Origin: Acidimicrobiia bacterium
GTDB lineage: Bacteria; Actinomycetota; Acidimicrobiia; Spongiisociales; UBA5794
DNA: 64,000 nt
Assembly (NCBI GenBank): GCA_041581135.1
Contig: JBFGCM010000003.1
Coordinates: 9,479 to 73,478 of the forward strand
Reading direction: 5' to 3'
In this document: piece after piece, positions 6,998-63,177 of the stretch
How positions within the stretch are numbered: position 1 is the stretch's first letter
Layout: each line of letters starts with the position of its first letter
Translations under genes and position numbers: made by a program
The notes under the pieces: model-generated
The model's input: the letters and a program-made list of their open reading frames with translations, nothing else
Databases searched by the model: none
What the model was told of the DNA's origin: nothing

Positions 6998-7173
6998 CAG
7001 TGAAGCGTTCTGAGCCCGAACCAAGCATACGTGAGGATCCACACTCCCACCGTGAACAGGCGCCACTCGGGATATCGCCTCACCAGAAACAATGCGGCAG
7101 CGAAGATCACGGTGGCGGCGGCCACTTGGGCCAACACCCCGCCGTCGGTGCTGGGGAGGAGCAGATCGATCAC
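6997..7173 (-). CDS. small hydrophobic protein (58 aa), below the ORF-track length cutoff
   Basis: Hand translation of the minus strand from GTG 7171-7173 gives VIDLLLPSTDGGVLAQVAAATVIFAAALFLVRRYPEWRLFTVGVWILTYAWFGLRTLH, then stop at 6997-6999. It has two hydrophobic helices. Its stop overlaps the next ATG. Confidence 0.45.
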   Translation of the reverse strand: MIDLLLPSTDGGVLAQVAAATVIFAAALFLVRRYPEWRLFTVGVWILTYAWFGLRTLH

Positions 7174-7611: not shown

Positions 7612-10600
7612 ATGAAGCCACTGCGATTGATGCTGGCGCTCGTCGTGGCGTGCACGACGGTCCTCGCCGCCGATGCCGCACACGCCGCGCCGGGATCGAT
7701 CGACGGCACCGTCACGGTCGACGGGGCGGTCGCGTCCGGCGTCACCGTGGCCGCGTTCGACGTGTCCAACCAGCTGGTCGGGTCCGACGTCACGGATGGT
7801 TCCGGCGCGTACAGCATCGCCGGCCTCGACCCGGCGGACTATCGCGTCCGGTTCGATCCCGGGCCCGGGATCGGCATCGAGTGGTACATCGACCAGTACT
7901 CGTGGACCACGGCCACCCCGGTCACCGTCCCCGACGGCGGGGCGGTCGCCGGCATCGACGGTCAGCTGAGCACCCTCACCGGATCGCCGGGCACCATCAC
8001 AGGCACCGTCACCAACAGCAGCACCGGCGACCCCATCGGCGGCATCTGTGTCACCGCCTACACGGAGTTCGGCTCCGTCGTCGCCGGCAGCGACACGAGC
8101 GATTCCGGTGGGGTGTACTCCATCGGAGTGATCGAAACCGGCCAGCAGGTCGACTTCTTCAAGGTCGAGTTCGTCGACTGCGGCATCGGGGTCCGACTCA
8201 CCGAGTGGTACGACGACGAGCGCAACTACGAGGAAGCGACTCCCGTGGCGGTGACGCGGGGCCAGACCACGACGGGCATCGACGGGCCGCTCGATGGCGC
8301 CGGTGAGATCCAGGGGATGGTTCGCTATCAGGGCGGTGGCCAGCCCGATGAGTACTGCATCAACCTGTTCGACGCCACCAGCGGAGCGACCTTCCCATTG
8401 CTCGCCGACTTGGAGAGCGCCACTGCGGTCGGTTCACCGACCTACGTGGTGTCGGGCATCGTGCCGGGCACGTACTACTTGCAGGCGGCGCCGTGCTCTA
8501 GTGGCAACCTGGTTCCCGGTTGGTACGGCAGCATCGATGGCTCGTTCGAGGATGCCCTGGGGCTCGTCATCGGCAGCGACGAGACGTTCACCGGGGTCGA
8601 CATCACCACGTACCGCGGCAACAGCGCGTTCACCGTGTTGAGCACGGGTCAGTCCGCCACCACCGACACCGGCAACGGAGCCACGGCGGGCGACCCCTTG
8701 GTCAGTACGCTGGCCATCGTGGGCCCCGGCTCGTTCGAGGACTACGTCTTGGTCGTCGAACCGGCCACTCCCAGAGGACCGACGCCGTCTGAGCTCGTGC
8801 CCTTCGGTTTCGAGACCGAGATCGACGTGCCGCCCCTCCCGGCAGGCGTGACCTACGCGGCCACCTTCGAGATCGACGCCGGCGTGGTTCCCGGGGGCCA
8901 CGACAGGCTGAGCCTGGCGGTGGGCTACGACGGTCTCTTGGTTCCCGACTGCACCGGGCCGGATCCGGTGCTGCCCTGCGTCATGTCGCGAACCGTGCAA
9001 GGCGACACTGATGTCGTGATCAGCGTGGCCGGCGAGACCTCCGGCATCTTCTCCTTCGGAACGCCCGCGGGCGGTGTGATCCGAGGCAGCGTGACGGCGG
9101 ACGTCGGTGGGGCGGCACTCGCCGGGATCTGCGTCTTCGGTGATGTCGCCGGCAGTACCGCCGCGGCCGTCACCACGGCCGTCGGGACCTACGCACTGGG
9201 TCTCGGACTCGCAGGCGACGTGAAGGTCTCCTTCCAGGACTGCGCCGATCCAGTGAGCCCGGCGTATGCCACCGAGTGGTACGACAACGTGCCGGACGCA
9301 GGAGCCGCCACCACGGTCGCCGTGTCCGGTGGCGCCATCGTCTCGGGCATCGATGCCTCGCTGGCACCCGCCGCTTCGATCCGAGGGGTCGTCACGGACG
9401 GTTCCACCGGACTGCCATTCGTCGGTCCGGACCAGGCGCCCGGTGTCGAGGGGCTCTGCGCCAATGCCGTCGCCGGCGGCTACCGCGTGGGGCCGCCCGC
9501 ATGGGTGCAGGCTGACGGTACCTATCGGCTGGTCGGGCTCTCCGCAGGCACGTTCACGGTGCTGGTGGGCCCTTGCGGCAACGAACCGGCACCAGGTTCG
9601 TACGTTCCCACCTGGTACGACGCTGCCGCCGGGTCAGTGCAACCGGCGGACGCTGCCGGCGTGGTGGTGACCACCGGTGGCGAAACCGCCGGTATCGACC
9701 TGACCGTCGACGAGGGCGTCTCGGCCCATCTGCTCGACGCCGAAGCCGGCGAAGCCGTCGTGCTCGATCTGGCCGCCGGCATAGGCGTGACCCTCAGCCA
9801 TCCCTCGGGTGGATACCTGGCCGCCATCGTCGCTCCGGGCTCCTCCGGTGGGGGATTCCTCGGCCTCGACGTCACCCTGATCCACCACAACGGCGGCCCC
9901 GGGACCCCGGCAAGCGCTACCTTCACGGTGCCGGCGGCGAGCATCCCGGCCGGGGCGGCGCCCTTCCACCTGGATCCCTACTTCGACGGCACCACGGTGG
10001 TGCCGTGCGTCGTCGCCGGCGCCGATCCATGCTCCTCGGCGAAGTACCTCTCGTCGGGCGGTCATGCCGTCGCCGTCCTCGCCGGTGCTCCCGGCACCTG
10101 GACGTTCGCCTACGACGTGCCGCCGGTCCTGCCCGGTCCATGGACCGACTCGTTCGTGGGCGACTTCGATGGTGACGGCCTCGACGACCTCGCTCTCTAC
10201 ACCGAGTCTGACGGTACATGGTGGGTGCATCGATCCAGCTCGTACGACTTCGTGCCGGAGTGGTGGGCGACGTTCAGCACCACGACGGGCTGGTCACCTC
10301 AGCTCGTCGGTGATTTCACTGGTGACGGGTTGGATGACATCGTGTCCTATCACGAGGGGACGGGTCGGTGGTGGGTGAACCGGTCGACGGGTTCGTCGTT
10401 CGTGTTGGAGTGGTGGGCGACGTTCAGCACCACGTCGGGGTGGGATCCCCAGCTGGTGGGTGATTTCACCGGTGACGGCAAGGACGACGTCGTGTCCTAT
10501 CACGAGGGGACGGGTCGGTGGTGGGTGAACCGTTCCACCGGCAGCACCTTCGGCCTCGAGCTGTGGACCACGTTCGGCACCAAGTCGGGTTGGGGGCCAC

Positions 10601-11034
10601 AGCTGGTGGGTGATTTCACCGGCGACGGCAAGGACGATGTCGTGTCCTACTACGAGGGGCTCGGGCGATGGTGGGTGAACGTGTCGACGGGCTCGACGTT
10701 CGTACAAGGACTCTGGTCGACGTACGCCACCACCTCGGGATGGCACCCGTACCTCGTGGGGGATTTCACCGGTGACGGCAAGGACGACCTGGCCACCTAC
10801 TACGAGGGGCTCGGCCGCTGGTGGGTCAACGCCGCCGCCACCGACACGTTCGAGCTGAGCCTGTGGACCACCTTCGGTACGCCGAGCGGGTGGACGATTC
10901 GCGTCGCTGGCGATTTCACCGGTGACGGTGCCGACGACATCGCCAACTACCACCCCGGTACGGGCCGGTGGTGGATCAGCGAATCGGGAGACAACACCTT
11001 CGACACGAGATTGTGGTTCGAACCGAGGTCGTGA
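7612..11034 (+). CDS. large secreted protein: signal peptide, multiple carboxypeptidase-regulatory-like beta-sandwich domains, C-terminal FG-GAP/VCBS-type repeat propeller
   Basis: RBS GGGGGA immediately precedes the ATG. Signal peptide MKPLRLMLALVVACTTVLAADAAHA. Recurrent G(S/T)I(D/T)GTVT...G..V.....DG.Y.I.GL..G.Y.V.F modules. Six 50-aa GDFTGDG(K/L)DD...G.G(R)WWV repeats at the C-terminus. Confidence 0.85.
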   Translation: MKPLRLMLALVVACTTVLAADAAHAAPGSIDGTVTVDGAVASGVTVAAFDVSNQLVGSDVTDGSGAYSIAGLDPADYRVRFDPGPGIGIEWYIDQYSWTTATPVTVPDGGAVAGIDGQLSTLTGSPGTITGTVTNSSTGDPIGGICVTAYTEFGSVVAGSDTSDSGGVYSIGVIETGQQVDFFKVEFVDCGIGVRLTEWYDDERNYEEATPVAVTRGQTTTGIDGPLDGAGEIQGMVRYQGGGQPDEYCINLFDATSGATFPLLADLESATAVGSPTYVVSGIVPGTYYLQAAPCSSGNLVPGWYGSIDGSFEDALGLVIGSDETFTGVDITTYRGNSAFTVLSTGQSATTDTGNGATAGDPLVSTLAIVGPGSFEDYVLVVEPATPRGPTPSELVPFGFETEIDVPPLPAGVTYAATFEIDAGVVPGGHDRLSLAVGYDGLLVPDCTGPDPVLPCVMSRTVQGDTDVVISVAGETSGIFSFGTPAGGVIRGSVTADVGGAALAGICVFGDVAGSTAAAVTTAVGTYALGLGLAGDVKVSFQDCADPVSPAYATEWYDNVPDAGAATTVAVSGGAIVSGIDASLAPAASIRGVVTDGSTGLPFVGPDQAPGVEGLCANAVAGGYRVGPPAWVQADGTYRLVGLSAGTFTVLVGPCGNEPAPGSYVPTWYDAAAGSVQPADAAGVVVTTGGETAGIDLTVDEGVSAHLLDAEAGEAVVLDLAAGIGVTLSHPSGGYLAAIVAPGSSGGGFLGLDVTLIHHNGGPGTPASATFTVPAASIPAGAAPFHLDPYFDGTTVVPCVVAGADPCSSAKYLSSGGHAVAVLAGAPGTWTFAYDVPPVLPGPWTDSFVGDFDGDGLDDLALYTESDGTWWVHRSSSYDFVPEWWATFSTTTGWSPQLVGDFTGDGLDDIVSYHEGTGRWWVNRSTGSSFVLEWWATFSTTSGWDPQLVGDFTGDGKDDVVSYHEGTGRWWVNRSTGSTFGLELWTTFGTKSGWGPQLVGDFTGDGKDDVVSYYEGLGRWWVNVSTGSTFVQGLWSTYATTSGWHPYLVGDFTGDGKDDLATYYEGLGRWWVNAAATDTFELSLWTTFGTPSGWTIRVAGDFTGDGADDIANYHPGTGRWWISESGDNTFDTRLWFEPRS
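10159..11031 (+). repeat. intragenic tandem repeat, period 150 nt (6 FG-GAP-like blades) with stretches of exact nucleotide identity between neighbouring units
   Basis: GAGTGGTGGGCGACGTTCAGCACCACG occurs at about 10258 and about 10408. TCGTGTCCTATCACGAGGGGACGGGTCGGTGGTGGGTGAACCG recurs one period apart. Confidence 0.85.
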
Positions 11035-11078
11035 CGCCCCGCCCGGCAGGGACGGGCGGTGCGGTCGCCGCCGGCCCT

Positions 11079-11654
11079 TCAAGGCAGCAGCACCTCGCGG
11101 ATCTTGGCTTCCAGATCGGCCTCGAAGATGGCCCCGTTGTGCTGGTCGACGATCTCGCCGAGCTCGTTGATGAAGAGCGTCGTCGGCATGGCAAATCCGC
11201 CGATCTCCGTGTAGATCGCGCCGTTGGCGTCCTCGACCAGGGTGTAGGTGACGCCGGTCTCCTCGGCGAGGCGCAGAGCATCCGGGCGCGCATCCTGGAT
11301 GTCGATTCCCACGAACGTCACCGCCCCGCCCAGCTTGGCGTTGACGGCCTCGAAGTCGGGCATCTCCGCGATGCATGCCGGGCACCACGAGGCCCAGAAG
11401 TTCGCCACCACGGGAGTGCCTATGAAGTCGGCCAGGGTGCCCTCCTCGCCGGTCGCGAAGTACTCGAACGGCAGGTCGGGTGCGGGATCGCCGCGCAGCA
11501 CCGGCCCGGCGGAAGGGACCGCGGTCGTGCCGTCCACGGCGGTCGTGGTGACCGGTGCGGGCGACTCGGTGGAGTCTGCATCGCCGCTGCCGCCACAGGC
11601 CGCCGCGACCAGGCAGAGTGCGGTCAGCGTCGTGACGAATGGTCTCGTGCGCAT
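11079..11654 (-). CDS. TlpA/ResA-like thiol:disulfide oxidoreductase lipoprotein (thioredoxin fold)
   Basis: ATG at 11652-11654 preceded by GAGG. Lipobox-like LCLVAAAC|GGS. Redox motif FWASWCPACIAEMP (CxxC). Confidence 0.85.
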   Translation of the reverse strand: MRTRPFVTTLTALCLVAAACGGSGDADSTESPAPVTTTAVDGTTAVPSAGPVLRGDPAPDLPFEYFATGEEGTLADFIGTPVVANFWASWCPACIAEMPDFEAVNAKLGGAVTFVGIDIQDARPDALRLAEETGVTYTLVEDANGAIYTEIGGFAMPTTLFINELGEIVDQHNGAIFEADLEAKIREVLLP

Positions 11655-11723
11655 GGAACCTCGAACGTGTTCGTACATTGCTAGAACGATGCGAGCCCGG
11701 ACGATGTTCCCGGGAAGTGTCGG

Positions 11724-13598
11724 CTAGCCGACGAGGTCGATCCCGTCGGGATCCTGGCTGGCGGCGATGATGGTCAGCGCGCCATGGGCGTCACCGATCA
11801 TCAGCGGCTGACCGCACGACGCATCGAACTTGATGCTCTGCACCACCGTGTCCGTGTCATCGAGGATGTAGCCGTACGTTTCGGCGGTGAACTCGGCCCC
11901 GCCCGCGTTGCCCACCGCGGCGGTGAATGGGCGGCCGACTTCGACAGTGGCGTCGTGGTGCGCAGGGTTGGCGATTGCGTCGGCGACGCTCCGATGCTGG
12001 CTGATGATGATCCGGGCCGTTGTCGGCAACACGCCGAACTCCTCGCACGTGTAGGTCCCCTCTGCCTGGCCATGCGCCGCCGGTGCTTGGCACGCCGAAC
12101 CGCTGTACAGGAATTGGAGCGCCATCGGCTTGCCCGGCTCGCAGCAGCTCTCTCCGTCGGCTGGCTCGTCATGGCCGCCCGGGTCATCCGGCATGCAGTC
12201 GACGATCTGCACCGCGCCGAACTCGTCGTTGAGGCCGAGCGGCTTGCTGCAAGAAGTGTGGAACTGGACCTCCTGCAGCAACGCCGACGTTGCCGGATCG
12301 AGCACGTATACGTAGGTGTCCGACTTGAAGCTGTTCTCGCCCGCGGCGGACGCCGATGCGGTGAAGATGTCGCCTACGGTGACGGAGTCGTCGAAGAACG
12401 AAGGCGCGACGAGCGCATCACCGAGGTCGCTCTCCTTCGTCACGATCACCCGTGAAGTGAGTGGCACCGCGCCGACGTCGGAGCAGGTCGCCTTGCCTTC
12501 CTGGGCGTTGGCCAGCGGCACTGCGCACGCCGCGCCCGTGAAGACGAAACTGAGGCCCTTGATGTCGCCGTCGGCGGCCTCGCAGCAGCTGTCGTCGGTG
12601 ATGATGCCGCTCTCGCCCGAGCATTCGATGACCTTGATCGCGCCGAACTCGTCACCGAGATCGAGCGGCTGGCTGCACGACGTGTGGAACTCGATCTCCT
12701 GGATCAGACCGTTCGTGTCGGGGTCCAGCACGTAGACGTAGGTGTCCGACTTGAACGTGCTCTCTCCACCGGCTGCTGCAGTCGCGTCCAGGGTGGCGCC
12801 GGCAGCGATGATGCCGTCGAAGTACGCCGGCTCGACCAGAGCGTCGCCCAGGTTCTTCTCCTGGGTGACGATGATCCGAGCGGTGGCACCGGGGGTGCCG
12901 AAGCCGGCGCAGAGGGCCTTGCCGCTTTGGGTGTTCGGCAAGGGGTTCTGGCACAGTGAGGCCGTGTACTCCAGGGTCAGCTTCGCGATCTCACCGCCGG
13001 CGGCATCACAACAGCTGTTGCCGCTGCCGCCGGAGTTGCACTCGACCAATGAGAAGCTGGCAAAAACCTCGCCGAGCGGAAGAGCCTTGCTGCACGAGGT
13101 GTGGAGCTTGACGAACTGTGCCACCGGTGTGCTGCTGTCCGGCGCCGTCCCCTGTTGGAAGACGGTCAGGTACGTGGAGCTCTTCAGTTTGTCGTCGCCG
13201 ACCACCCCGGCATCGGCCGTGAAGAAGTCGCCGTCGCTGACCGGACCGGCGAAGTAGATCTTGCCGTTGAACGATCCATCGCCGTCGAACAGGTCCTCGG
13301 GCTTCTTCTCCGACGCGATGATGTAGACGGTTCCGGGAGTGGGCTGGGCCCCGTCGCACTCCTCCTGCGCCTCTCGGGCGACGATGCCGCCGCCGTCGCC
13401 GACGGGCAAGCACGGCCCGGGTTGGTACAGGAACGTGAGATTGCGAAGGTCCACCTTGGGGTCGCAGCAGTCGGTACCGAAGCCGCTGACGTCCTGGGCC
13501 AGCGCTTGGCTCATCCGGATGGCCTGCACCGCGGGCGTGGTCCACGCGGCGGCGCCTGCCACCACTGCGCCACGCTTGAGCGCCTCGCGACGCGTCAT
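11724..13598 (-). CDS. Tat-signal secreted protein made of four tandem about 145-aa cysteine-rich repeats (unassigned domain)
   Basis: ATG at 13596-13598 preceded by GGAAGGGGGG. Twin-arginine signal MTRREALKRGAVVAGAAAWTTPAVQA. Four repeats each contain CC...C...C...TY.Y.LD...Q.I.FHTSCS.PL.LGDEFGA...C. Confidence 0.8.
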   Translation of the reverse strand: MTRREALKRGAVVAGAAAWTTPAVQAIRMSQALAQDVSGFGTDCCDPKVDLRNLTFLYQPGPCLPVGDGGGIVAREAQEECDGAQPTPGTVYIIASEKKPEDLFDGDGSFNGKIYFAGPVSDGDFFTADAGVVGDDKLKSSTYLTVFQQGTAPDSSTPVAQFVKLHTSCSKALPLGEVFASFSLVECNSGGSGNSCCDAAGGEIAKLTLEYTASLCQNPLPNTQSGKALCAGFGTPGATARIIVTQEKNLGDALVEPAYFDGIIAAGATLDATAAAGGESTFKSDTYVYVLDPDTNGLIQEIEFHTSCSQPLDLGDEFGAIKVIECSGESGIITDDSCCEAADGDIKGLSFVFTGAACAVPLANAQEGKATCSDVGAVPLTSRVIVTKESDLGDALVAPSFFDDSVTVGDIFTASASAAGENSFKSDTYVYVLDPATSALLQEVQFHTSCSKPLGLNDEFGAVQIVDCMPDDPGGHDEPADGESCCEPGKPMALQFLYSGSACQAPAAHGQAEGTYTCEEFGVLPTTARIIISQHRSVADAIANPAHHDATVEVGRPFTAAVGNAGGAEFTAETYGYILDDTDTVVQSIKFDASCGQPLMIGDAHGALTIIAASQDPDGIDLVG

Positions 13599-13842
13599 CC
13601 CCCCTTCCGCTCTGCCCTTGCCCATGTACGTGACTGCCCTTCCACGCCGGTCTGCGTCATTCCAATCTAAGGCAGCCACGCGCCAATGCCTATACGCCTG
13701 TGGTCGTATTTGCCGATCAACATGCAGTTGGCATCGGGTACGTAGGCAGCGATACGCGGGACGAGGGGCCGGCCGGGCCCGTGGCCGCAGGCGTCACGCA
13801 CCGCCGATCTAGCATCTCGCCAGCTACCGACGAGGACCAGTC

Positions 13843-15615
13843 ATGACGGCAGATGCATGGATCACGCTCATCGTGATCGCCGTGCTGGTGGTCATCTTCG
13901 TCACGGAGCGCATCGGTACCACCCTCGCCATCGGCGGAGCGGTGGCGGTGCTCTACGTGGTCGGGGTGCTCGAATTGCCCCGTGCCTTCGCCGGCTTCAC
14001 CAACGCCGCACCCATCACCGTAGGTGCGCTCTACGTGGTTGCCGGTGCCGCCGACATCACCGGCGCCCTGAGTGCGCTCGTCTCCCGGGTACTGGGCTCG
14101 GACTCCGCCACGTCGGTGCGCCGCTCGCTCGTGCGAGTGGTTGCGCCCGTCACCGCGCTGTCTGCCTTCATACCCAACACGCCGCTGGTGGCGATGTTGG
14201 CGCCCCGAGTGCAGACGTGGGCCCGTAACCGCGGAGACTCTCCGTCTCGGTACCTCATGCCGCTGTCGTTCGCCACGATCCTGGGCGGAGTGATCACGGT
14301 GTTGGGAACCTCGACCAACCTGGTGGTGAACGGTCTGCTGACGGATTCCGGCAACGAGGCCTTCTCGATCTTCGCCATCACCCGGGTGGGACTGCCGGTG
14401 GCGATCATCGGGGGCGCGCTGCTCGTGTTCGTGGCCCCCTTGTTCCTTCCGGAACGTCGGGCCCCGGTCGCCGATCTCGACGCCCCGCGGGAGTTCACCC
14501 TCGAGATGCGGATACCCGACGGAAGCCCGTTGGACGGCCGCACCGTCGAGGACGCCGGTCTGCGCGCGCTGGACGGGGTCTACCTCATCGAGGTGGAACG
14601 CGACGGAGCCGTGATCGTCCCGGTCGCCCCGGCAGAGACCCTGCGCGCCGGGGACCGGCTGGTCTTTGCGGGCAACATCGAACGCATCGTCGACCTCCAG
14701 AATCATCCCGGTCTCGTCATGGCCGAGGAACACCACTTCGGGGCCGATCGGGTCGGGCAGCGGTTCTTCGAGGCCGTGGTGAGCGAGACGAGCCCACTGA
14801 ACGGCGCCACGCTGAAGGACGTCGGGTTCCGCAATCTGTACTCGGCCGCCGTGGTGGCGGTGCACCGGGCGGGAGAACGGCTGCCGGGCAAGCTGGGCGA
14901 CACGAGGCTCAAGACCGGTGACGTGCTGCTCGTGGTCGGCGGTCCGGGGTTTCGTGACCGAATGCGGGACCTCTCCGACTTCTCGGTCGTTGCCACCTTC
15001 GAGGAGGCGGCACCCATCCGCCGGACCGGCTCCCGCATCGTCGGGGTGGCAGTGGTGGGCCTCATCGTGGTGACCGGAGCCGGCCTCGTCGATCTCACCC
15101 GGGCTGCCGTAGCGGTGGCGCTGGGACTCGTCGTGCTGCGGGTGGTGACGCCGGCGGAGGCCAGGCGCTCCGTCAACCTGAGCATCATCCTGATGATCGC
15201 CTTCGCGTTCGGGCTGGGAAATGCGGTGGCAGACAGCGGATTGGCCAACCTCGCCGCCTCCCGCCTGCTCGACGCCATGGGTGGATTGGGTGACGTGGGA
15301 GTGCTGGCCGGAATCCTCATCGCCACGGTGATCGCCACCGAGCTGCTGTCGAACAACGCCGCCGCGGCGCTGATGTTCCCGATAGCCGTCTCGGTCTCGG
15401 TCGAGACCGGTATCGCCCTCGAACCACTGGCGATGGGCATCATGATGATGGCGTCGTCGTCGTACCTGACCCCGATCGGCTACCAGACCAACACGATGGT
15501 GTACGGCATGGGCGGATACCGGTTCACCGATTTCGCCCGGGTCGGGCTGCCGTTGACAGTGGTGGCGGTGGTGGCGACGCTCCTCATCACCCCGCTCGCG
15601 TTTCCCCTCCGCTGA
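13843..15615 (+). CDS. SLC13/DASS-family anion permease with two central TrkA-C (RCK_C) domains
   Basis: 590 aa with hydrophobic N- and C-terminal halves. Two soluble inserts resemble TrkA-C (LEMRIPDGSPLDGRTVEDAGLR...GDRLVFAG and VVSETSPLNGATLKDVGFR...GDVLLVVG). Confidence 0.8.
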   Translation: MTADAWITLIVIAVLVVIFVTERIGTTLAIGGAVAVLYVVGVLELPRAFAGFTNAAPITVGALYVVAGAADITGALSALVSRVLGSDSATSVRRSLVRVVAPVTALSAFIPNTPLVAMLAPRVQTWARNRGDSPSRYLMPLSFATILGGVITVLGTSTNLVVNGLLTDSGNEAFSIFAITRVGLPVAIIGGALLVFVAPLFLPERRAPVADLDAPREFTLEMRIPDGSPLDGRTVEDAGLRALDGVYLIEVERDGAVIVPVAPAETLRAGDRLVFAGNIERIVDLQNHPGLVMAEEHHFGADRVGQRFFEAVVSETSPLNGATLKDVGFRNLYSAAVVAVHRAGERLPGKLGDTRLKTGDVLLVVGGPGFRDRMRDLSDFSVVATFEEAAPIRRTGSRIVGVAVVGLIVVTGAGLVDLTRAAVAVALGLVVLRVVTPAEARRSVNLSIILMIAFAFGLGNAVADSGLANLAASRLLDAMGGLGDVGVLAGILIATVIATELLSNNAAAALMFPIAVSVSVETGIALEPLAMGIMMMASSSYLTPIGYQTNTMVYGMGGYRFTDFARVGLPLTVVAVVATLLITPLAFPLR

Positions 15616-15652: not shown

Positions 15653-16474
15653 ATGCGACCCACGATTGCCATCCTCGGTGCCGGCAGCCTCGGCGAGATC
15701 TTCGCCAAGGGATTGCTGCGCGCCGGCTGGGAACCCACAGAACTGGTGCTGGCGGCGCGCCGCGCCGAACGTGCCGTCGAGGCCGAGAAGGCCACCGGCG
15801 TCACCACGCTGCTGGACGCCTCCGAGGCGGCAGCAGGGCGCGAGGTCGTGATCCTGGCGGTGAAGCCCAAGGACGCCGTCGGCCTGTTGCACACGCTCCA
15901 GGGGACCATCCAGGCGGGGCAGGTGGTGGTTTCGGTGATGGCGGGTGTGCCCCTTGCGGTGTTCGAGCGGGAACTGCCCGGCATCGCGGTGATCCGGGCC
16001 ATGCCCAACACGCCGGCGGCTGTCGACGAAGGCATGACGGCCTTTTGCGGCGGCACGTTCGCCGACGACCCGGCCCTGGCGGTCGCCGAGACCGTCCTCG
16101 GCGCCGTCGGAGAGACCATCCATCTCTCGGAGGACCTCCTCGATGCGGTCACGGCGGTCTCGGGCACGGGTCCGGCCTACATCTTCCTCCTCGCCGAAGC
16201 GATGACGGATGCCGCCATCCGTGAGGGTCTTCCGCGTGACGCCGCCGTGAAGCTGGTCGATCAGACGCTGCGAGGCTCCGGCAAGCTGGTCGCCGAGTCA
16301 CACCTCCCGCCGGTGGAGCTGCGTGCCCAGGTCACCTCCCCCGGCGGTACGACCGCGGCTGCGGTTCACGTGCTCGAGGAGGGCGGGTTCCGGGCACTCA
16401 TGGAAGACGCCGTGCGTGCCGCTGCGGCCCGCTCCCGTGAGATGGGGGCCCGGGCCGCCGCCGACGAGGAGTAG
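15653..16474 (+). CDS. proC: pyrroline-5-carboxylate reductase
   Basis: N-terminal ILGAGSLGEIFAKGLL dinucleotide fold. The signature VTSPGGTTAAAV lies near the C-terminus. 273 aa. Confidence 0.92.
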   Translation: MRPTIAILGAGSLGEIFAKGLLRAGWEPTELVLAARRAERAVEAEKATGVTTLLDASEAAAGREVVILAVKPKDAVGLLHTLQGTIQAGQVVVSVMAGVPLAVFERELPGIAVIRAMPNTPAAVDEGMTAFCGGTFADDPALAVAETVLGAVGETIHLSEDLLDAVTAVSGTGPAYIFLLAEAMTDAAIREGLPRDAAVKLVDQTLRGSGKLVAESHLPPVELRAQVTSPGGTTAAAVHVLEEGGFRALMEDAVRAAAARSREMGARAAADEE

Positions 16475-20554: not shown

Positions 20555-21298
20555 ATGGAAGCAGGAGAGCGGCGTGACCCGTCGCGGCAGCGGTGGTTCA
20601 CGAAGTCGGCAACTGTGTACGACGCGATCTACGAGTCGATCCTCGATTACGACGCAGAAACCGAGCTCTTGATGGACATCATCGGCGAGCGGCGCCCGGG
20701 TGCCGAGTCCGTGCTCGAGGTCGGGTGCGGTACCGGTCAGTTCCTTGCGCGGTTGCGACGCGACTTCGGGCGGGTGGTCGGCGTCGACGTGTCCGAGGAG
20801 ATGGTGGCGGTGTGCCGTGCTCGACACCCTGAGTGCGATGTCAGGCTCGACGACATGCGGACGTTCGACCTCGGCGAACAGTTCGACGCGGTGCTGTGCT
20901 TGTTTGCATCGGTCGGCTACGTGCGCACTCTCCACGGTCTGCAGCAGGCGACGAGTGCTCTGGCGCGCCATCTCGCTCCAGGTGGGGTGCTCGTGCTCGA
21001 CGGCTGGATCCGGCCCGAGGACTACGTAGTGGGCCATCGTCACGCGCTGACGGCCCACGCTCCGGGGTTGACCGTGTCGCGTCACTCGCTGGCACACGCG
21101 GGTCCGCCCGGGGAGTCCATGATCGACATGGCGCATCTCGTGTCGACGCCGGAGGGCTTCGACTACTACGTGGAGCGGCACGAGATGGGGCTGTTCGCCG
21201 ACGAGGATGTCGTGGCGGCGATGCGCGCCGCCGGCCTCGAAGACATCGAGGTGCTCGAGTGGAGAGCGCGGGGACGGTACGTGGGGAGTGCACCCTGA
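20555..21298 (+). CDS. class I SAM-dependent methyltransferase
   Basis: ATG at 20555 preceded by GGGGAGG. SAM motif I VLEVGCGTGQF, followed by VVGVDVSEEMV and DAVLCLFASVGY. Confidence 0.85.
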   Translation: MEAGERRDPSRQRWFTKSATVYDAIYESILDYDAETELLMDIIGERRPGAESVLEVGCGTGQFLARLRRDFGRVVGVDVSEEMVAVCRARHPECDVRLDDMRTFDLGEQFDAVLCLFASVGYVRTLHGLQQATSALARHLAPGGVLVLDGWIRPEDYVVGHRHALTAHAPGLTVSRHSLAHAGPPGESMIDMAHLVSTPEGFDYYVERHEMGLFADEDVVAAMRAAGLEDIEVLEWRARGRYVGSAP

Positions 21299-21443
21299 CG
21301 AGTGTGCTCGCCGCGCAACGGCCACCGGGGCGGGCAGGTTCGTTCGTTGTGCTTATTCGGCGCGTAATGGTGGTTCTAAGCACAATCGACGCATCGACCT
21401 CCCTCACTACACTCGCCTGCGTCGCCGACGAACGGGAGGACTG

Positions 21444-23633
21444 GTGGCAGGGACGACGACCGAGGCGCCCGTGACCGAAGACGCGATCACCGCGCCGGTT
21501 CGTACCCGCTCCGTCGCCCATCTGTTGCTGTGGCTCGCCGCAGCCAGCGTCGTCGGCACCTTGCTGCTCTGGTGGCTGGGTACCCTCTCAGCCGAGGAGG
21601 AGCCCGAAGTCGGCCGCGCCGTCTTCGGCAACATTCCCGGCGCCCTGGTCGCCTTCTTCTACGTGGGTGTCTCGGTCTTCCTCGGGTTCTCGATCTACCT
21701 GTTCGCCCAGCGAATGCGCAACGTGGAACGGGGACGGCCGGAGAGCCGCGCCGGGCTGTGGAAGCAGCGCATCCGTCGCCTCGACCAGGGTCTTCGCATG
21801 AAGACGCTGCTCGAGGATCGGGAAGCCGGACTGATGCATGCCGCCATCTACTACGGATTCCTGGTGCTGTTCTTGGGCACCGTCACCCTCGAGATCGACC
21901 ACCTGCTCCCCAACAACCTCAAGTTCCTCCACGGGAGCGTGTACCAGGCGTACTCGGCCATCCTCGACGCCTTCGGCCTCGTGTTCCTGGGCGGGCTGGC
22001 ATGGGCAGCCGTCCGCCGCTACGGGAAGCGGCCGTGGCGCCTCCGCAGCAAGACGAAGCCGGAGGACATGTGGATCCTGATCACGCTGGCCACCATCGGC
22101 GTCACCGGCTTGCTCACCGAGGCCGCCCGTATCGCCACGATGGGCCGGCCCGGATTCGAGATCTGGTCGTTCGTGGGATACCCACTCAGCTACCTGTTTC
22201 CCGAGTCGTCGGCGGCGGGGCTCCACCAGATCGTCTGGACGGTGCACGCCATTGCGTTCGGCGTGTTCCTGATCATCTTGCCGACGACGAAGCTCCGCCA
22301 CATGGTCACCTCGCCCGTCAACCTGGCGCTGTCGCCGCGGGAGCGCCCGAAGGGCGCGATGCGCGAGATGGTCAACCTCATGGAGGCCGAAGATCTCCCC
22401 GACGCCGTGGGCGCCTCCACCGTGGGCGAGTTCACCTGGAAGCAGCTGTTCGACACGGAGGCCTGCACCGTGTGCGGCCGCTGCACGTCGGTGTGCCCGG
22501 CCAACACCACCGGTAAGCCGCTGGACCCCAGGGAGATCGTCCTGAAGCTCGGTGAGGTGGCGGCCCGCACGGCGGCGGACCCACTGTCACCGCCGGTGAG
22601 CGTCGACAGCGAGATCACCGTGTCCAGTGACCTCGTCTTCGAACGCATCACCTCCGAGGAGCTGTGGGCATGTACGTCCTGCCGCGCCTGCGACGAGATC
22701 TGTCCCGTCGACATCGAGATCCTCGACAAGATCCTCGACATGCGCCGCTATCTCTCGCTGATGGAATCGGATTTCCCCAGCGAGCTGGGCAAGGCGTACA
22801 TCTCCCTGGAGAACTCTTCCAACGTGTACGGCGTCGACCAGAGCACGCGTGGTGACTGGACCGACGACCTCGGGTTCCCCGTGAAGCGGCTCGGCGAGCC
22901 AGGGGTGGAGGCCGAGTATCTCTACTGGGTGGGATGCGCCGGTAGCTTCGACGACCGTAACCGGAAGGTGACGATCTCCACCGCCCGTCTGCTGCAGGAG
23001 GCCGGTGTCGACTTCGCCATCCTCGGTCCCGGCGAGCTGTGCACGGGTGACCCGGCCCGACGCACCGGCAACGAGTACGTGTTCCAAGGGCTGGCGCTGC
23101 AGAACATCGAGACACTCAACGATCTCGGTGTCACCAAGATCATCACGCAATGCCCGCACTGCTTCAACACTCTGGGCAACGAGTATCCGCAGTTCGGTGG
23201 CGAGTACCAGGTGATGCACCACAGTGAGCTGCTCATGAACCTGGTGGGGGAGGGCAAGATCACGCCCAAGAACGGAGACAGCCGCACGGTCACCTTCCAC
23301 GACCCGTGCTACCTGGGCCGACACAACGACGTATTCCTGGCGCCCCGCGAGGTCATCGACAGCGTGGGCGACCGGGTCGAGATGCCACGCAACGGCCTCG
23401 ACTCGTTCTGCTGCGGTGCCGGCGGAGGCCGGATGTGGATGGAGGAGCACCTCGGCAAGAAGGTCAACATCGAACGTACCGAGGAGGCGGTCGCCACCAA
23501 CGCCGACATCGTGGCGACGGGCTGCCCGTTCTGTTACGTGATGATGGACGATGGCGTAAAGGAGATCGGTGCCGACGAGAGCGTCGAGGTGATGGACCTG
23601 GCGATGTTGTTGGCCCAGCGGAGCCTCGACTAG
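21444..23633 (+). CDS. membrane-anchored (Fe-S)-binding oxidoreductase, heterodisulfide-reductase (HdrD/GlpC)-related
   Basis: N-terminal multi-TM domain. Two 4Fe-4S motifs (CTVCGRCTSVCP, CTSCRACDEICP). Two CCG-type Cys-rich domains (QCPHCFNTLG, FCCGAGGG). The start is uncertain (GTG 21444 or 21471); the upstream part of the tracked ORF overlaps the previous CDS. Confidence 0.8.
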   Translation: MAGTTTEAPVTEDAITAPVRTRSVAHLLLWLAAASVVGTLLLWWLGTLSAEEEPEVGRAVFGNIPGALVAFFYVGVSVFLGFSIYLFAQRMRNVERGRPESRAGLWKQRIRRLDQGLRMKTLLEDREAGLMHAAIYYGFLVLFLGTVTLEIDHLLPNNLKFLHGSVYQAYSAILDAFGLVFLGGLAWAAVRRYGKRPWRLRSKTKPEDMWILITLATIGVTGLLTEAARIATMGRPGFEIWSFVGYPLSYLFPESSAAGLHQIVWTVHAIAFGVFLIILPTTKLRHMVTSPVNLALSPRERPKGAMREMVNLMEAEDLPDAVGASTVGEFTWKQLFDTEACTVCGRCTSVCPANTTGKPLDPREIVLKLGEVAARTAADPLSPPVSVDSEITVSSDLVFERITSEELWACTSCRACDEICPVDIEILDKILDMRRYLSLMESDFPSELGKAYISLENSSNVYGVDQSTRGDWTDDLGFPVKRLGEPGVEAEYLYWVGCAGSFDDRNRKVTISTARLLQEAGVDFAILGPGELCTGDPARRTGNEYVFQGLALQNIETLNDLGVTKIITQCPHCFNTLGNEYPQFGGEYQVMHHSELLMNLVGEGKITPKNGDSRTVTFHDPCYLGRHNDVFLAPREVIDSVGDRVEMPRNGLDSFCCGAGGGRMWMEEHLGKKVNIERTEEAVATNADIVATGCPFCYVMMDDGVKEIGADESVEVMDLAMLLAQRSLD

Positions 23634-31860: not shown

Positions 31861-31980
31861 ACCGCCCCTGAGCCGGCGGGGCAGCACCCGCACGATCGGC
31901 TCTCCGTCGGAAAGTACGGAACCCGACCCCGTGAGCGGACCAATGAAGCGTTGGAACCGTCTTCACGGAGGGACGCACAC

Positions 31981-34900
31981 GTGGGCAGTACACAGGACCG
32001 CAAGACAACGACGCTCGATCGCGTACTGGTGATGCTCGCCGCGCTGGCAGTGGTCATTCCACTGTTCCCGGCGGCGGGATCCGCGCAGGCCGCCGAGCCC
32101 GACATGTGGCTCGATCCCGGCCCGGGCGTGGTCGTCAACGAGACCGGCGAGCCCGGTCCGGATACCTACATCGTCCTCCATCAGGCGCCGCCGCTGGCCC
32201 TCTACGACGGATCGGTGGCCGGCCTCCTGGCCACTGCCACCGACGTGACGGGTGAGCCCCGGCTCGACCCGACGACGCCTGCCTCGGTCGCCTATCTCGA
32301 GTACCTCACCGCCGAGCAGGATGCGCTGCTCGCCAGGATCGAAGCGTCCATCGGCCACAGCGTGGATCCCACGTTCCGCTATGCCGCCGCACTGAACGGC
32401 TTCGCCGTGACGTTGACCGTCGACGAGGCGGCCACCGTGTCCTCGCTCACCGGTGTCGCCCGCGTCGAGCGCGACTCCGACCGGTTCCTCCTCACCGACA
32501 ACGGCCCGGCGTGGATCGGAGCCGACGCCATCCACGATGGTTCCGCCACTCCCGATGCGGTGGGCACCCTGGGAGAAGGTGTCGTGGTGGGGGTGATCGA
32601 CACCGGCATCAACGCCGACCATCCCAGCTTTGCCGCCATTGGCCCGGTGGACGGCTACGTGCACCTCAATCCGCGGGGGACCTTCTTCGGGGCGTGCGAT
32701 CCGGTGCTGGGAACGCCTTTCTGCAACAACAAGCTGGTCGGTGTCTACGACTTCACCGGGACGTCACCCGAGGACGACAACGGTCACGGCAGCCATACGG
32801 CCTCCACGTCGGCCGGCAACGTCGTCGATGTGGAGTTGGTGGCGCCCACCAACACGATCAACCGCCGCATTGCCGGCGTCGCCCCGCACGCCAACATCAT
32901 CTCCTACAAGGCGTGCGTCACCACACCGGTGCGAGGCACCTGCCCGATCTCGGCGCTCATCGCGTCCATCAACCAGGCGACGCTCGATCAGGTCGACGTG
33001 ATCAACTTCTCGATCGGTGGGAGCTCCTCGGACCCCTGGGCCGACCTCGACGCCCAGGCCTTCTTCTCGGCGAATGCGGCCGGCATCTTCGCCGCCACTT
33101 CGGCGGGCAACGACGGGCCCGGGGCCGCCACCCTCGGCTCACCTGCGGATGCTCCGTGGGTGACCTCGGTGGGTGCGTCCACCCACGACCGCCGTCTGCA
33201 GAACGGCCTCATCAGCATGGCCGGGGGCGACACGACCCCGCCCGCCGACCTCTTTGGCAAGTCGAACACCAGCGGATACGGACCGGCGCCGATCGTGTAC
33301 GCCGGCGATTACCCGTCCGCCCTCACCGCGACCCCTGAGCTCTGTGGCGCCGGCACGCTGGAAGCGGCGGTGAGCCCATGGCCACCCGGCACCTTCAACG
33401 GCGAGATCGTCGTGTGCGACCGTGGCGAGTTCGGCCGCGTCGCCAAAGCCCAGCACGCCATGGAGGCCGGCGCCGGCGGCTTCATCCTCGCCAACGACTT
33501 CGACAACGGCGACAGTGTCGTTGCCGACGGCTACGCCATCCCCGGGGTACACATCAGCCACGACGACGGTGTGATCCTCAAGGCGTGGCTGGCATCGGGG
33601 GCCGGACACACCGGCACCATTCGCGGCACCAACGCCGACGAGTCACCCGACTTCGCCGACTCGATGGCCGGCTTCAGCTCGCGAGGCCCCAACCCGGCAT
33701 TCGCCGGCCTGGTGAAGCCGGACGTGACGGCGCCCGGTGTCGACATCCTCGCCGCCTTCAACACGCCGGTGCTCACCACCGGGACCGACGAGTACAACAT
33801 CATCAGCGGCACCTCCATGTCGAGCCCGCACACCGCCGGTGCCGGAGCCCTCATCCGGGCCGCCCATCCGGGTTGGTCGCCGGACGAAGTGAAGTCGGCA
33901 CTCATGACCACCGCCTTCACCACCGTGCCCACAGACACCGAGACGCACGGCACCTTCAAGGAAGACGGAACCACCCCGACGGACGCCTTCGACCTCGGAG
34001 CCGGAAGGATCGACCTCCGCCAGGCGGCCCTCGCCGGGTTCGTGCTCGACGAGTCGGATGCCGACTACACCGCCGCGAATCCCGGTGACGGCGGCGACCC
34101 GACCTCGCTGAACATCGCCAGCTTCGGTACCAGCTCGTGCTCGGGCACGTGCTCGTGGACCCGGACGATCTCGAGCACGCTCGGTGCGGACGTCGGCTGG
34201 ACGTTCTCTTTCGATGCCCCGGCCGGTGTGGTCCTCAGCAGTGACCAGCCCACCATCACCCTGGCGGCCGGGGGCGAGGCGACATTCACCGTCACCGCCG
34301 ACGTGACCGCCGCGCCGACGAGCCAGTGGCTGTTCGGGACGGTGAGCATGACGCCCGACGCGGCGGGCGTGCCCGTCGCCAAGTTCCCGCTTGCACTCTT
34401 CGTCACCGGCACGTCCACCACGCCGCAGACTGCACTGCACATGCACGGCAACGTCCACGACGCGCCCTGCACCGGTGACGGGCGTGCCGACCTGATCGCA
34501 TGCGACGGGCCCTTCCTGTCCGTCGATCCCGACCTGGACATCGCGCCTGCGGCCAAGTTCGGTCCGGTGACGCCCGCCTTCAACGGCAGCAACTCCCGGA
34601 ACATCTACGACCCCAACTGGGTGTGGCACGTGGCGTCCCCTGCGGTGATCGAGGGTGAGATGACCGTGCGGATGTGGGCGTCATGTGGCGCCTGCGCCGC
34701 CGGCCTTCTGACCGCAGATTGGGACGTCAAGGTATTCGACACCGATGCGGCCGGAGCGACCCCGGTCTTCACCGAGCGGGTGGTTGACGCGACGCCAGTG
34801 GCGCCGAACACTCCGAGCTTGGTCGAGTTCAGCGTGCAGCTGCCTCGTATCGAGATCGCCTCGGCCATGGTGCTGCAGATCGACCCGCTCTACCTCGACA

Positions 34901-37900
34901 GCCAACAGAACACCACGATCTACTACGACTCCCAGCAGCCGTGTGGCGCCGGCACCGACCCGTGTGACTCCGTGGTGCTGATGCCCATCGTCTCCGGCGG
35001 CCCGGAGAACCGCGCCCCGGTGGCGAGTTCCGATTCGGTGGACGTCACCCAAGGTGGCGCCGTGACCTTCGACGTGCTCGCCAACGACTTCGATCCTGAC
35101 GGCGATGCCATCTCGATCATCGGCAACACGGATCCGGTGCACGGCGTCTTGGTCGACAACGGTGGAGGGAGCTTCAGCTACACCCACAACGGCGGGGACA
35201 GCCTCTCCGACAGCTTCACGTACACCATCTCCGATGGCCAGTTGGAGTCGACCGGCCACGTCACCATCACGGTGGTCGGCTCGACACTGACCGTCCGCAA
35301 CTCGTTCGTCTCCTCGGTGGGATGGGTGAAGCCGGGCGAGGGGTATCCCTTCCGAGTGATCGTGGAGAACCCGACCACCGACGATGCCACCGGTGTGGTC
35401 GTCACGGTGGAGGAGCCAGCCGGGACCGACTTCTTGTTCACCACCGAGAGCCAGGGCACCGCGGTCGTCAGCGGTGACATCACGTGGACGCTCGGTACGT
35501 TGCCTGCCGGCGCCACCGCAACCATGGTGGTGCAGGCCGAGGCTGACACGTTCGCCGACGACGCTGAGATCGTTTGGAAGAACATCTCGTCCACCGCCAC
35601 GCTCACCTACGACGGCGGGCCCGCCGGTCTCATGTCCATGGGCCACGGCCCGAAGGTGATTCCGGTTGACTCGACGTACGACTCGGCTCGCTACGGCGAC
35701 CGCCCGTTCCCGGTGGTGCCGGTGGACTGGTTCGACCGCAAGCATGATCCCGAGCACACCGCCGAGTTGCTCTCGGCCAAGATCAACTCCCCCGACGTGG
35801 TCGGCTCTACGTTCAACCTGTTCCAGGAGATGTCGCTGGGCCAGCTGTTCCCGATGGGCACCGTGCCCTCGGCGGGCATTGCCAGCGCCGACTTCTCCGG
35901 GCAGACGTTCGAGTTCACCGATCCCGAGCCGCAAGGGGCGTGCACCGGTACGACGTTCAAGGACACCGCAGGGACGCCGGTCTACGGCGAGCGGATCAAG
36001 GACGGCTGGTACCAGATGCCGGGCGACACCAACTACTACGGCGCCGATCGGTTCACCTTCGGCGGCTCCATCGGTGGCGCCCAACTGGGTGTGGGCCCGC
36101 TGCTCCAGATCGACGATGCGTGCGGCCCCACGGGCAAAGCTGTGTACGACGCGGCGCACATCGCCGACCCGGAGATCGACTACAACGACTTCGATACCGA
36201 CAAGGACGGCGTCGTGGACTTCTTCATGATGGTCTTCGTCGGTCTCGGCGGTAACGGCGACAGCCAGATCAATGGGACTCCGCCGTACGACAACATCTGG
36301 CCGCACAGCTCGAGCTTGGAGTTCTACTACACCGATCCCGACACCGGGCTGACTGGGTACATCTCCAATGATCAGCTGAAGAGCCTCAGCGGCGTGCCGC
36401 AATGCTGGACGTCGACGGCCTATCAGGTGTCCGATGACTGCGCCGCCAACGGCGGGACCGGCCTCGACTCGCTGCCGGTGTTCGTGCGGGTGGGCCCGTA
36501 CAACGTGAACCCGGAGGAGGCGATCGACCGGGCCAGCGTCATCAGCCACGAGTACGGCCACAGCCTCGGGCTGCCCGACTTCTACTCGCTGGGTAGCCGG
36601 GACACCTATGGCGACTGGAACCTGATGGCGACCGACAAGTCTCAGCACATGGACATCTTCTCCAAGCAGGAGCTGGGCTGGATCGTGCCCGAGGTGCTGC
36701 AGCCCGGAGACGACATCTCGGTGCTGGGGTGGCAGGACTCCAAGATCGACACCGGTGAGATCCACTGGCAGACGCCGGACGGCACGCCGTACACCCTGTC
36801 CGCGGCCAACGGCGACCAGAAGATCCACAACGCCGATGCATGGATGGTCAAGCTGCCGAGCCGCAAGGTGATCGACGAGGCCGTCGTCGCCAACGGTGCC
36901 AGCCTGGACCACGTGTGGTGGTCGGGCTCGGGCAACGACTTCGGATGCCCGCCGCTGGGGGGCCACAACTTCGACCTCTACCTGCCGCAGCTGGCCGACC
37001 TCGGACCCGGCGACACGGTGGAGGTGCAGTTCGCCACCAGCTTCGACATCGAGTGGGACTACGACTACGGCTTCGTGCTGTACTCCACCGACTTCGGTGA
37101 GTCGTACCAGTCGCTGGGGTCGCTCGAGGGCTACACCGAGGCCGTCTTGAACCCCAACGCCAACGCCTGCCAGACCCAGTACGGCAACGGAGTGACCGGT
37201 ACCACCGCATCCCACGATGCCGGTACGGCCGGCGTCGACCGCGGCTTGGGGAATTACCCGGCCAACACCGGGTTCTCCCTCGACCGCTACGACCTGAGTG
37301 CGGCCGTGGGCAGTGAGACCGTGCTGCGGTTCAGCTACGCCACGGACCCGGGCCTGGCCCGACCCGGCTGGTTCATCGACGATCTGAAGGTCATCGTCAA
37401 CGGCACGGACGTCATCTACGACTCGAACTTCGAGGACGGTGCCGGCGAAGCGGCAATCTTCAACGGTGGGTGCCAGGGCGAGCGCGGCCGGGTGGCGCAG
37501 ACCTGCACACCGGGCTGGAAGTACATCAATGCTTCCGCCGGCTCACCGGCCGACCACGCCTACTACCTCGAGATGCGAGACCGTTCCGGTTTCGACTTCA
37601 ACGGCAACGGCGAGAACGACCGTGGCGCCATCAGCTTCGATCCCGGCGTCCTGCTGGTGTACACGGACGAGAACCACGGCTACGGCAACGTCGGCACTGA
37701 CGACCCGCCGGCCCAGACGCCGGTCGACTCCAGGCCGGAGCCCACCGACAACACGCCGAATCTCAACGATGCGGCGTTCAAGGCGGGCGACGTGTACTTC
37801 GACGACGGCGCCTCGATGCTGGGCACGCAGGCCAACCTCGATGCCCCGGCGTGGACGGACAACTACGAGAACCCCGGCCCCGACGACCCGTGGGTGCACC

Positions 37901-63176: not shown

Positions 63177-63177
63177 G

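Follow-up and report, generated by a model that had tools for sequence, protein, structure and literature searches.

The domain DUF7467 is catalogued in Pfam as PF24269, and literature searches for DUF7467 and for its motif HTSCSQP found no papers. The domains that share proteins with it (DUF7507, DUF11, SdrD_B, CarboxypepD_reg, SpaA, CARDB and CBM96) are all extracellular. Dockerins, type IX secretion system (T9SS) C-terminal domains and PEP-CTERM-like tails occur as sorting elements in DUF7467 homologues. Among the thioredoxin-like (Trx-like) proteins that act outside the cytoplasm, DsbE and DsbF are listed for mycobacteria (PMC3792642). Here we describe a DUF7467 protein of 624 amino acids (aa) and the TlpA-like gene next to it. 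Both are encoded in a stretch of 64,000 nucleotides, called the window, from an Acidimicrobiia bacterium (assembly GCA_041581135.1, contig JBFGCM010000003.1, positions 9,479 to 73,478 of the forward strand). On balance we favour reading the product as a secreted protein of four DUF7467 modules, stapled by disulfides, with a general and undedicated tlpA neighbour. A preliminary description of this DNA had reported 624 aa, a signal like those of twin-arginine translocation (Tat), four repeats, 23 cysteines and a WCPAC lipoprotein gene downstream on the same strand, and all of this anatomy was confirmed from the sequence.

Family membership and repeat anatomy

Pfam PF24269 matched the 624-aa protein in four stretches (E 1e-91, 304 bits against a gathering cutoff of 27), and the four-fold repeat is therefore far above chance. 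The repeat had been presented as an unassigned domain, which no longer holds: it is DUF7467, and NCBI names some of the relatives 'DUF7467 domain-containing protein'. The domain is catalogued yet uncharacterised, and to that extent its earlier description still stands. The family signature C..GKP..L..YTG..C...Q...K..C.G ... FHTSCSQPL..GDQFG was present in repeats 1-3 and decayed in repeat 4 (FDASCGQPL..GDAHG). The gene and its parts are laid out as follows.

11724..13598, minus strand: coding sequence of the DUF7467 protein (624 aa; its sequence is P0001), with a TAG stop at 11724-11726
13599..13608, minus strand: Shine-Dalgarno-like purine run GGAAGGGGGG, read from the sequence, abutting the ATG at 13598
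13521..13598, minus strand: Tat-like signal peptide, aa 1-26, with TRREALK, an h-region of weak hydrophobicity, and VQA ahead of the predicted cleavage site
13029..13475, minus strand: repeat 1, aa 42-190, the most divergent copy, with an insert of about 13 aa; motif LHTSCSKALPLGEVFAS; Cys 44, 45, 63, 81, 169 and 187
12609..13019, minus strand: repeat 2, aa 194-330; motif FHTSCSQPLDLGDEFGA; Cys 196, 197, 216, 230, 308 and 326
12183..12593, minus strand: repeat 3, aa 336-472; motif FHTSCSKPLGLNDEFGA; Cys 338, 339, 358, 372, 450 and 468
11763..12152, minus strand: repeat 4, aa 483-612, degenerate; motif FDASCGQPLMIGDAHGA (H to D, T to A), with the C-terminal Cys gone; Cys 485, 486, 503, 518 and 595

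The minus-strand open reading frame (ORF) extends over 11724..13679, and the ATG at 13598 gives the 624-aa product with the N-terminus MTRREALKRGAVVAGAAAWTTPAVQA. NCBI places the start of P0001 at 13625, nine codons (27 nt) upstream of this ATG, which gives 633 aa. The purine run GGAAGGGGGG, if it functions as it appears to, favours the 624-aa start over the one chosen by NCBI. The signal peptide and the four-copy array make up the protein, which has no anchor. The repeats are about 135-150 aa long; in the alignment their identity to repeat 1 was 27-32%, repeats 2 and 3 shared 51%, and C, L, C, C, T-Y, Q and S-C were invariant across all four. The 23 cysteines are distributed over the repeats as 6+6+6+5, with four vicinal CC pairs. 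Two plus-strand ORFs, at 12316-12735 and 12742-13257, were considered as genes and rejected; their GC content at third codon positions (GC3) is high, and we put them down to antisense reading of a high-GC gene. Nor was there support for the DUF7467 gene having been acquired horizontally, as a GC of 0.657-0.666 and a GC3 of 0.84 are typical of the window.

An indexed homology search returned 191 homologues at E<=1e-3, and PF24269 was found on all 120 matches listed. No relative in this search exceeded 39% identity to the window protein. An exhaustive profile search against 1.84 billion cluster representatives (clusters at 50% identity) gave 3,101 representatives at E<=1e-3 and 1,970 at E<=1e-10. 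The family members come mostly from uncultured marine or sediment bacteria. With an 18-sequence alignment we recovered 77 homologous loci (1.01 Mb) from GTDB species genomes, nearly all of them metagenome-assembled genomes (MAGs). These belonged to Planctomycetota, Saprospiraceae and other Bacteroidota, Myxococcota, Gemmatimonadota, Acidimicrobiia, Chloroflexota, Verrucomicrobiota and a few archaea. The window protein is a new member of this known, unstudied family.

The comparison also bears on where the domain begins. In repeat 3 (window 12183-12599) the PF24269 model, which has 116 positions, starts at about aa 346, past Cys338 and Cys339. The N-terminal Cys that goes with the invariant Cys of the HTSC motif thus falls outside the model, and the predicted structural unit is about 135 aa. 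The analysis thus offers a refined DUF7467 boundary, of about 135 aa including the N-terminal Cys left out by Pfam, and a portrait of a family of about 3,100 clusters at 50% identity that is usually C-terminal in surface proteins; in 132 of 241 homologues the array was the very last element of the chain. As one further member of a catalogued, unstudied domain family, the protein has modest practical value.

Cysteines, fold and the conserved loop

We followed the co-occurrence of cysteines in about 290 domain copies aligned to the hidden Markov model (HMM), and counted the cysteines per copy in 585 copies. The HTSC Cys was found in 98-100% of copies, with the N-terminal Cys essentially always alongside. 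Nine copies appeared to break this pair: six of them keep the N-terminal Cys shifted by 1-3 alignment positions, and the remaining three are degenerate repeats of P0175 that lack the HTSC Cys and in which the rest of the motif has decayed too. The second and third cysteines (C23/C38) travel together, as both were present in 233 copies, only one in a single copy and neither in 53 (phi 0.99; 0.97-0.99 for this pair overall). The first Cys of the CC occurred in only about 30% of copies, including 71 of the 72 that have the C-terminal Cys. Copies with two (102), four (165) and six (183) cysteines were common, and even counts outnumbered odd ones by 467 to 118 (about 80% even; n=585). Because the cysteines are gained and lost as pairs and their counts are even, they point to structural disulfides and not to a metal-binding CC site. 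Each module probably has one core and two optional disulfides.

The co-occurrence data suggest the following arrangement. All modules would share a disulfide between the N-terminal Cys and the Cys in the near-invariant FHTSCSQPL loop. About 80% of copies are predicted to have another, which would close a loop of about 13 residues in which the conserved Gln and Lys lie. In roughly a quarter to a third of copies the extra first Cys of the CC would also be linked to the Cys that ends the last strand. The window protein would accordingly carry 11 disulfides and one spare thiol in the degenerate repeat 4, where one Cys of the 485/486 pair is left unpartnered because this repeat has lost its C-terminal Cys. 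The result is a disulfide map of the family with 2-, 4- and 6-Cys subtypes.

The preliminary description had suggested a metal or cofactor CC site. Such a site, built from the CC and other cysteines, would be loaded in the cytoplasm before Tat export, or else a dedicated TlpA would keep the protein in the reduced state at the surface. The Tat-like signal, the odd total of 23 cysteines, the TlpA-like neighbour and the near-invariant His and Cys of the HTSC motif would all fit this proposal. However, the first Cys of the CC, present in a minority of copies, tracks the C-terminal Cys; all the common cysteines are paired and their counts strongly even; most of the family has Sec-type N-termini and no conserved thiol-redox linkage, as described below; and we found no similarity in Pfam, NCBIfam or PDB to a metal- or cofactor-binding family. 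We consider the proposal, in either form, very improbable.

An AlphaFold2 model of repeat 3, made with a 105-sequence alignment, had a predicted local distance difference test score (pLDDT) of 94 and a predicted template modelling score (pTM) of 0.89, and was all-beta with 8 strands and 2 one-turn helices. The model of repeats 2-3 together (pLDDT 88.5, pTM 0.71) showed the same topology twice, joined by a less confident linker of about 12 residues, which suggests that the repeats are arranged as beads on a short string. Foldseek had no match at E<0.001, either for the single repeat (PDB and BFVD) or for the two-repeat model (PDB). Its top-scoring candidates were a lamin Ig-like domain (TM about 0.31-0.36, E 0.02), GH2 accessory domains and hot-dog thioesterases (TM about 0.3), and were judged to be chance matches. 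A PDB profile search with the 105-sequence alignment gave only 22-residue matches to WD40 repeats, which were spurious. As modelled, the DUF7467 module is all-beta, predicted with confidence and without a solved structural relative in PDB or BFVD, and we take it to be a beta-sandwich. Judged by the domains found with DUF7467 in other proteins, the array would most likely be a stable binding or stalk module.

The loop around the HTSC Cys is very strongly conserved, with H in 92-95% of copies, T in 90-96%, S in 95-98%, C in 98-100%, the next S in 97%, Q in 80% and P in 87-91%. Three distant residues are also conserved, a Gln (88-97%), a Lys (84-85%) and a Tyr (94-95%). This conservation would suit a near-invariant H-T-S-C-S-Q-P loop that is a reactive site, either for an autocatalytic cross-link within the molecule (an ester between Thr/Ser and Gln, or a thioester between Cys and Gln) or as a warhead for covalent adhesion as in Gram-positive adhesins. 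Such a role would also be consistent with the return of HTSCSxP in a second, shorter type of module, with a fold that has no solved relative, and with the occurrence of DUF7467 beside the adhesin stalk domains SdrD_B, SpaA and DUF11. Against it, the HTSC Cys always comes with the N-terminal Cys, and in P0175, the single protein to have lost the HTSC Cys, the rest of the motif has decayed too; a disulfide is for these reasons the simplest reading of this Cys. Moreover, Pfam, PDB profile and Foldseek searches (E<0.001) showed no similarity to thioester, isopeptide (CnaA/CnaB) or ester-bond domains. We give a reactive loop only a slim chance. If the HTSCSQP loop were reactive or binding, DUF7467 would represent a surface-protein module of a new kind that merits structural study, and the window protein, which consists of four repeats and no other domain, would be a convenient construct.

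The shorter HTSCSxP module was N-terminal in P0009, P0018, P0019 and P0022 and C-terminal in P0032, P0058, P0063 and P0074-76. It reads, for example, '...TxIHTSCSQPIGPGxVFGxFxVVxGES..GGPxC' or '...INGVxEVxHTSCSTPFVxxxPAPLxxPKGDPSPNWFVVDF'. Its sequence suggests a wider superfamily built round the HTSCSxP motif.

Export signal and the TlpA-like neighbour

The signal of the window protein consists of TRREALK, then GAVVAGAAAWTTPAV, then VQA, and its maximal 12-residue Kyte-Doolittle mean was 1.19. TIGR01409 scored 16.6 bits on it (E 0.0074), 0.1 bit short of the cutoff of 16.7, and PF10518 (cutoff 22.7 bits) did not match it. The signal had been called a textbook Tat signal. Its TRR motif, weak h-region and VQA do make Tat export plausible, but with a borderline TIGR01409 score and no PF10518 match 'textbook' was an overstatement. 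Among the homologues with complete N-termini, 72 (about 78%) had signals of the general secretory (Sec) type and about 4 were Tat-like; a signal like that of the window protein is a rarity among DUF7467 proteins. Since the family is mostly Sec-exported, the domain normally folds outside the cell, and this fits its stabilisation by disulfides. The preliminary description had also seen a paradox in Tat export of a cysteine-rich protein. A Tat-like signal does stand before 23 cysteines here, but the paradox is weaker than stated in a family that is overwhelmingly Sec-exported. We propose that the window protein is exported through its Tat-like signal and that the disulfides form after export. A pre-folded module exported by Tat, with its partner cysteines already side by side, could simply oxidise once outside.

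Other Tat-type signals were seen in the family. A single-domain DUF7467 protein from an Acidimicrobiales MAG (L054, 2-658) has a similar signal, SRRTVLKGGAAVGAAMWAAPVIES, which passes PF10518 with 29.1 bits; further features of this protein are additional cysteines and a (GGK)n tail at the C-terminus. The signal of P0099 passes TIGR01409. None of the other predicted secreted proteins of the window has a comparable Tat-like signal, and no tat genes were found among the window genes scanned.

The TlpA-like gene follows the DUF7467 gene on the same strand. The features of this neighbourhood are, in order along the window:

7000..7167, minus strand: homologue of a 58-aa gene found immediately after tlpA at the related locus L082 (tblastn, 50% identity, E 3e-11)
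7612..11034, plus strand: FG-GAP surface-protein gene, 1,140 aa, with a Sec signal, CarboxypepD_reg, an SdrD_B-like domain and six FG-GAP/VCBS repeats; convergent with tlpA
11079..11678, minus strand: TlpA/ResA/DsbE-superfamily thioredoxin-fold lipoprotein with WCPAC; N-terminus MRTRPFVTTLTALCLVAAAC; 199 aa, or 191 aa from the ATG at 11654 (NCBI)
11679..11723, minus strand: intergenic spacer of 45 nt, measured to the ATG at 11678, which becomes 69 nt if the gene starts at 11654
13843..15615, plus strand: CitMHS/TrkA_C transporter gene, divergent from the DUF7467 gene
15653..16474, plus strand: proC (pyrroline-5-carboxylate reductase; Pfam P5CR_dimer and F420_oxidored), which at L082 and L083 is one gene (DUF3159) away from tlpA

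The probable true start of the TlpA-like gene is 11654, for which the gap of 69 bp given earlier is right; it shrinks to 45 nt for the first ATG at 11678. In Pfam the protein matched Redoxin (67.3 bits, cutoff 26.6), AhpC-TSA (55.9 bits) and Thioredoxin. It stayed well below the NCBIfam cutoffs of TlpA (55.5 against 230), ResA (59.9 against 170) and DsbE TIGR00385 (62.4 against 123.15). Its relatives in PDB were CcmG/DsbE, TlpA, ResA, StoA and, from M. tuberculosis, DsbF (3ios) and MPT53/DsbE (1lu4), at E 3e-13 to 1e-8. The lipobox-like N-terminus (...LCLVAAAC) indicates an extracytoplasmic anchor. Together with the superfamily match and WCPAC, it bears out the identification of the neighbour as a TlpA-like lipoprotein. 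Oxidase activity has reportedly been found for actinobacterial DsbE and DsbF, in work by Goulding in 2004 and Chim in 2010. On its sequence the window enzyme may be an oxidase or a reductase.

The neighbour had been called a dedicated partner of the cysteine-rich protein, and this part of the preliminary description was not supported by comparison with other genomes, which showed the lack of conserved linkage that the description itself had named as counting against it. With the window TlpA-like protein as query, phmmer found nothing at E<=10 in the six-frame ORFs of the 77 DUF7467 loci, while the protein itself was recovered in the window. The Trx-type motif F-x-A-x-WCxxC was present at 0 of 77 loci, and a Pfam scan of the first downstream gene at 67 loci showed no thioredoxin-fold match and no recurrent family. 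The Tat-type homologue P0093 had no thioredoxin-fold neighbour within 6 kb (P0099, on a very short contig, does not count here), and no ccdA or DsbD was seen among the window neighbours scanned.

Close orthologues of the TlpA-like gene are numerous (69-74% identity), but no relative of the DUF7467 protein exceeded 39%. Gene order was read at two related loci. L082, from the Acidimicrobiia MAG SS_bin_13, has Septum_form, proC, DUF3159, tlpA and a 58-aa gene. L083 has Septum_form, proC, DUF3159 and tlpA, and its contig ends in a partly read gene on the opposite strand. Neither locus has a DUF7467 gene; SS_bin_13 does carry one (L017), on another contig than its tlpA orthologue (L082). The window holds counterparts of the L082 genes proC (56% identity, 15653-16465), tlpA (71%, 11085-11504) and the 58-aa gene (50%, 7000-7167). 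The slot that DUF3159 occupies in these relatives is filled in the window by the CitMHS transporter gene and the DUF7467 gene, and relative to L082 the FG-GAP gene has been inserted after tlpA, ahead of the 58-aa gene. Because the orthologues keep the proC-tlpA synteny without DUF7467, and the 77 DUF7467 loci lack thioredoxin-fold genes, tlpA is a conserved Acidimicrobiia backbone gene flanked by variable surface-protein genes, and no dedicated partner of the DUF7467 protein. The case is a cautionary one, as a pair of 'Cys-rich protein + TlpA' dissolved when synteny was checked in relatives.

At the two related loci the DUF3159 membrane-protein gene lies directly upstream of the tlpA orthologue on the same strand (L082 3047-3715, L083 2604-3251), and no DUF3159 homologue was found in the 64-kb window. 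DUF3159 could be the usual partner of the TlpA-like protein. In another assembly (L081; GCA_041611855.1, JBFIMF010000017.1) an identical TlpA-like protein is followed by the same FG-GAP gene. A 531-aa product, cut by the contig end and without family annotation, is encoded there in the position of the DUF7467 gene upstream of tlpA. The arrangement is likely reproducible in the L081 population. Two further TlpA homologues with 58-61% identity (L084 and L086) have other contexts (Hsp20 or DUF3179, MFS); they are probably paralogues and were set aside as uninformative.

A coupling confined to this lineage is a separate matter. The two genes might form a lineage-specific operon in which the TlpA-like lipoprotein handles the 23 thiols of its substrate after export, either as an oxidase or as a reductase/isomerase that resolves wrong disulfides, for instance at a vicinal CC. 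The genes are on the same strand, 45-69 nt apart, and the spacer holds no promoter or terminator-like site; its RNA fold z-score of 0.67 is nothing unusual, and an Rfam scan of 10900-14000 gave no match. The substrate is unusually rich in cysteines, with its four vicinal CC pairs, the enzyme's anchor would hold it at the external side of the membrane, to which the substrate is exported, and the PDB relatives include DsbF and MPT53/DsbE. On the other hand, relatives without an adjacent DUF7467 gene keep tlpA at high identity, none of the 77 surveyed DUF7467 loci has a thioredoxin-fold neighbour, and ccdA and DsbD are missing from the neighbours scanned. Adjacency is also a weak argument here, as the other flank of tlpA carries an inserted surface-protein gene too. 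We regard such an operon as possible but doubtful. Under the reading we favour, of a general tlpA neighbour, the DUF7467 gene would have landed upstream of a conserved, syntenic tlpA-like gene. The two genes may share a transcript, and the thiols of the DUF7467 protein may be among the targets of the oxidoreductase, which would be a general envelope enzyme.

Weighing the evidence, other genes and known systems

Several points speak against our reading of the protein as a stapled stalk or binding array with an undedicated neighbour. The FHTSCSQPL..GDQFG motif, with the conserved Y, Q and K, exceeds in conservation what a purely structural stalk usually calls for, and may mark a specific site for a ligand, a cross-link or catalysis. 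The disulfides are deduced from the co-occurrence of cysteines, either Cys of the CC pair may be the one that bonds to a given partner, and the Tat assignment is drawn from a motif and a borderline HMM score. The shared strand, the short gap and the lack of a terminator are compatible with a real coupling to tlpA in this lineage, and no close DUF7467 orthologue was found through which a lineage-level linkage could show. In the boldest combination of these points, DUF7467 would be a new extracellular fold whose HTSCSQP loop forms a reactive or ligand site with the Gln and Lys of the disulfide-closed loop, exported folded via Tat, with tlpA co-opted into an operon for its thiols. We find this highly unlikely as a whole.

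Other genes of the window encode further multidomain proteins. A 2,701-aa ORF at 31861-39966 (plus strand) contains a subtilase S8 with a PA insert, fn3_6, DUF11, an M6/InhA-like metallopeptidase with MAM, PKD and four Big_9/cadherin-like repeats, and its product looks like a giant surface protein with two proteases. The 1,021-aa protein encoded at 50030-53095 (plus strand) has N-terminal transmembrane segments, HD_5/HD (HD-GYP-like), a Thr-rich linker and 3-4 Big_9/cadherin-like repeats; from its predicted domains it is a cytoplasmic signalling domain fused to an extracellular Ig-like array. One ORF at 21123-23633 (plus strand) combines a NarI-like membrane domain (Nitrate_red_gam), 4Fe-4S ferredoxin domains and two CCG cysteine-rich domains, and its product resembles an HdrD/DsrMK-like electron-transfer protein. 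On the minus strand, 61158-63299 encodes a RACo-like protein (reductive activator of corrinoid enzymes) with linker, middle and C-terminal ASKHA domains.

The TlpA-like protein resembles TlpA, ResA, CcmG(DsbE), StoA and the M. tuberculosis proteins DsbE(MPT53) and DsbF in its Redoxin fold, its WCxxC motif (WCPAC) and its N-terminal anchor. It differs in its low scores for the named families and in being encoded outside any ccdA-resB-resC cytochrome c biogenesis cluster. As in Tat signal peptides, the signal of the DUF7467 protein has T-R-R-x-A-L-K, a weakly hydrophobic Gly/Ala-rich h-region and the A-x-A-like VQA. Its passenger differs from those of such signals in showing no sign of a cofactor and in belonging to a family that is normally Sec-exported.

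In comparison to other PF24269 proteins, the window protein is simple. The median homologue has about 225 aa ahead of its first copy, whereas here the signal is followed by the array and nothing else. The window protein falls into the 6-Cys 'CC' subtype (about 30% of copies), its signal is Tat-like in a family of mostly Sec-type signals, and it lacks a sorting tail (T9SS C-terminal domain, PEP-CTERM or dockerin).

Among described surface modules, DUF7467 is most like the SdrD B-like, DUF11, SpaA/CnaB-type, CARDB, Big and cadherin-like ones, being likewise all-beta, tandem, extracellular and about 100-140 aa long, and occurring in the same proteins. It shows no detectable similarity in sequence or fold to any of these modules. 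Its stabilisation also appears to differ, as it would come from disulfides and not from isopeptide or ester bonds or calcium.

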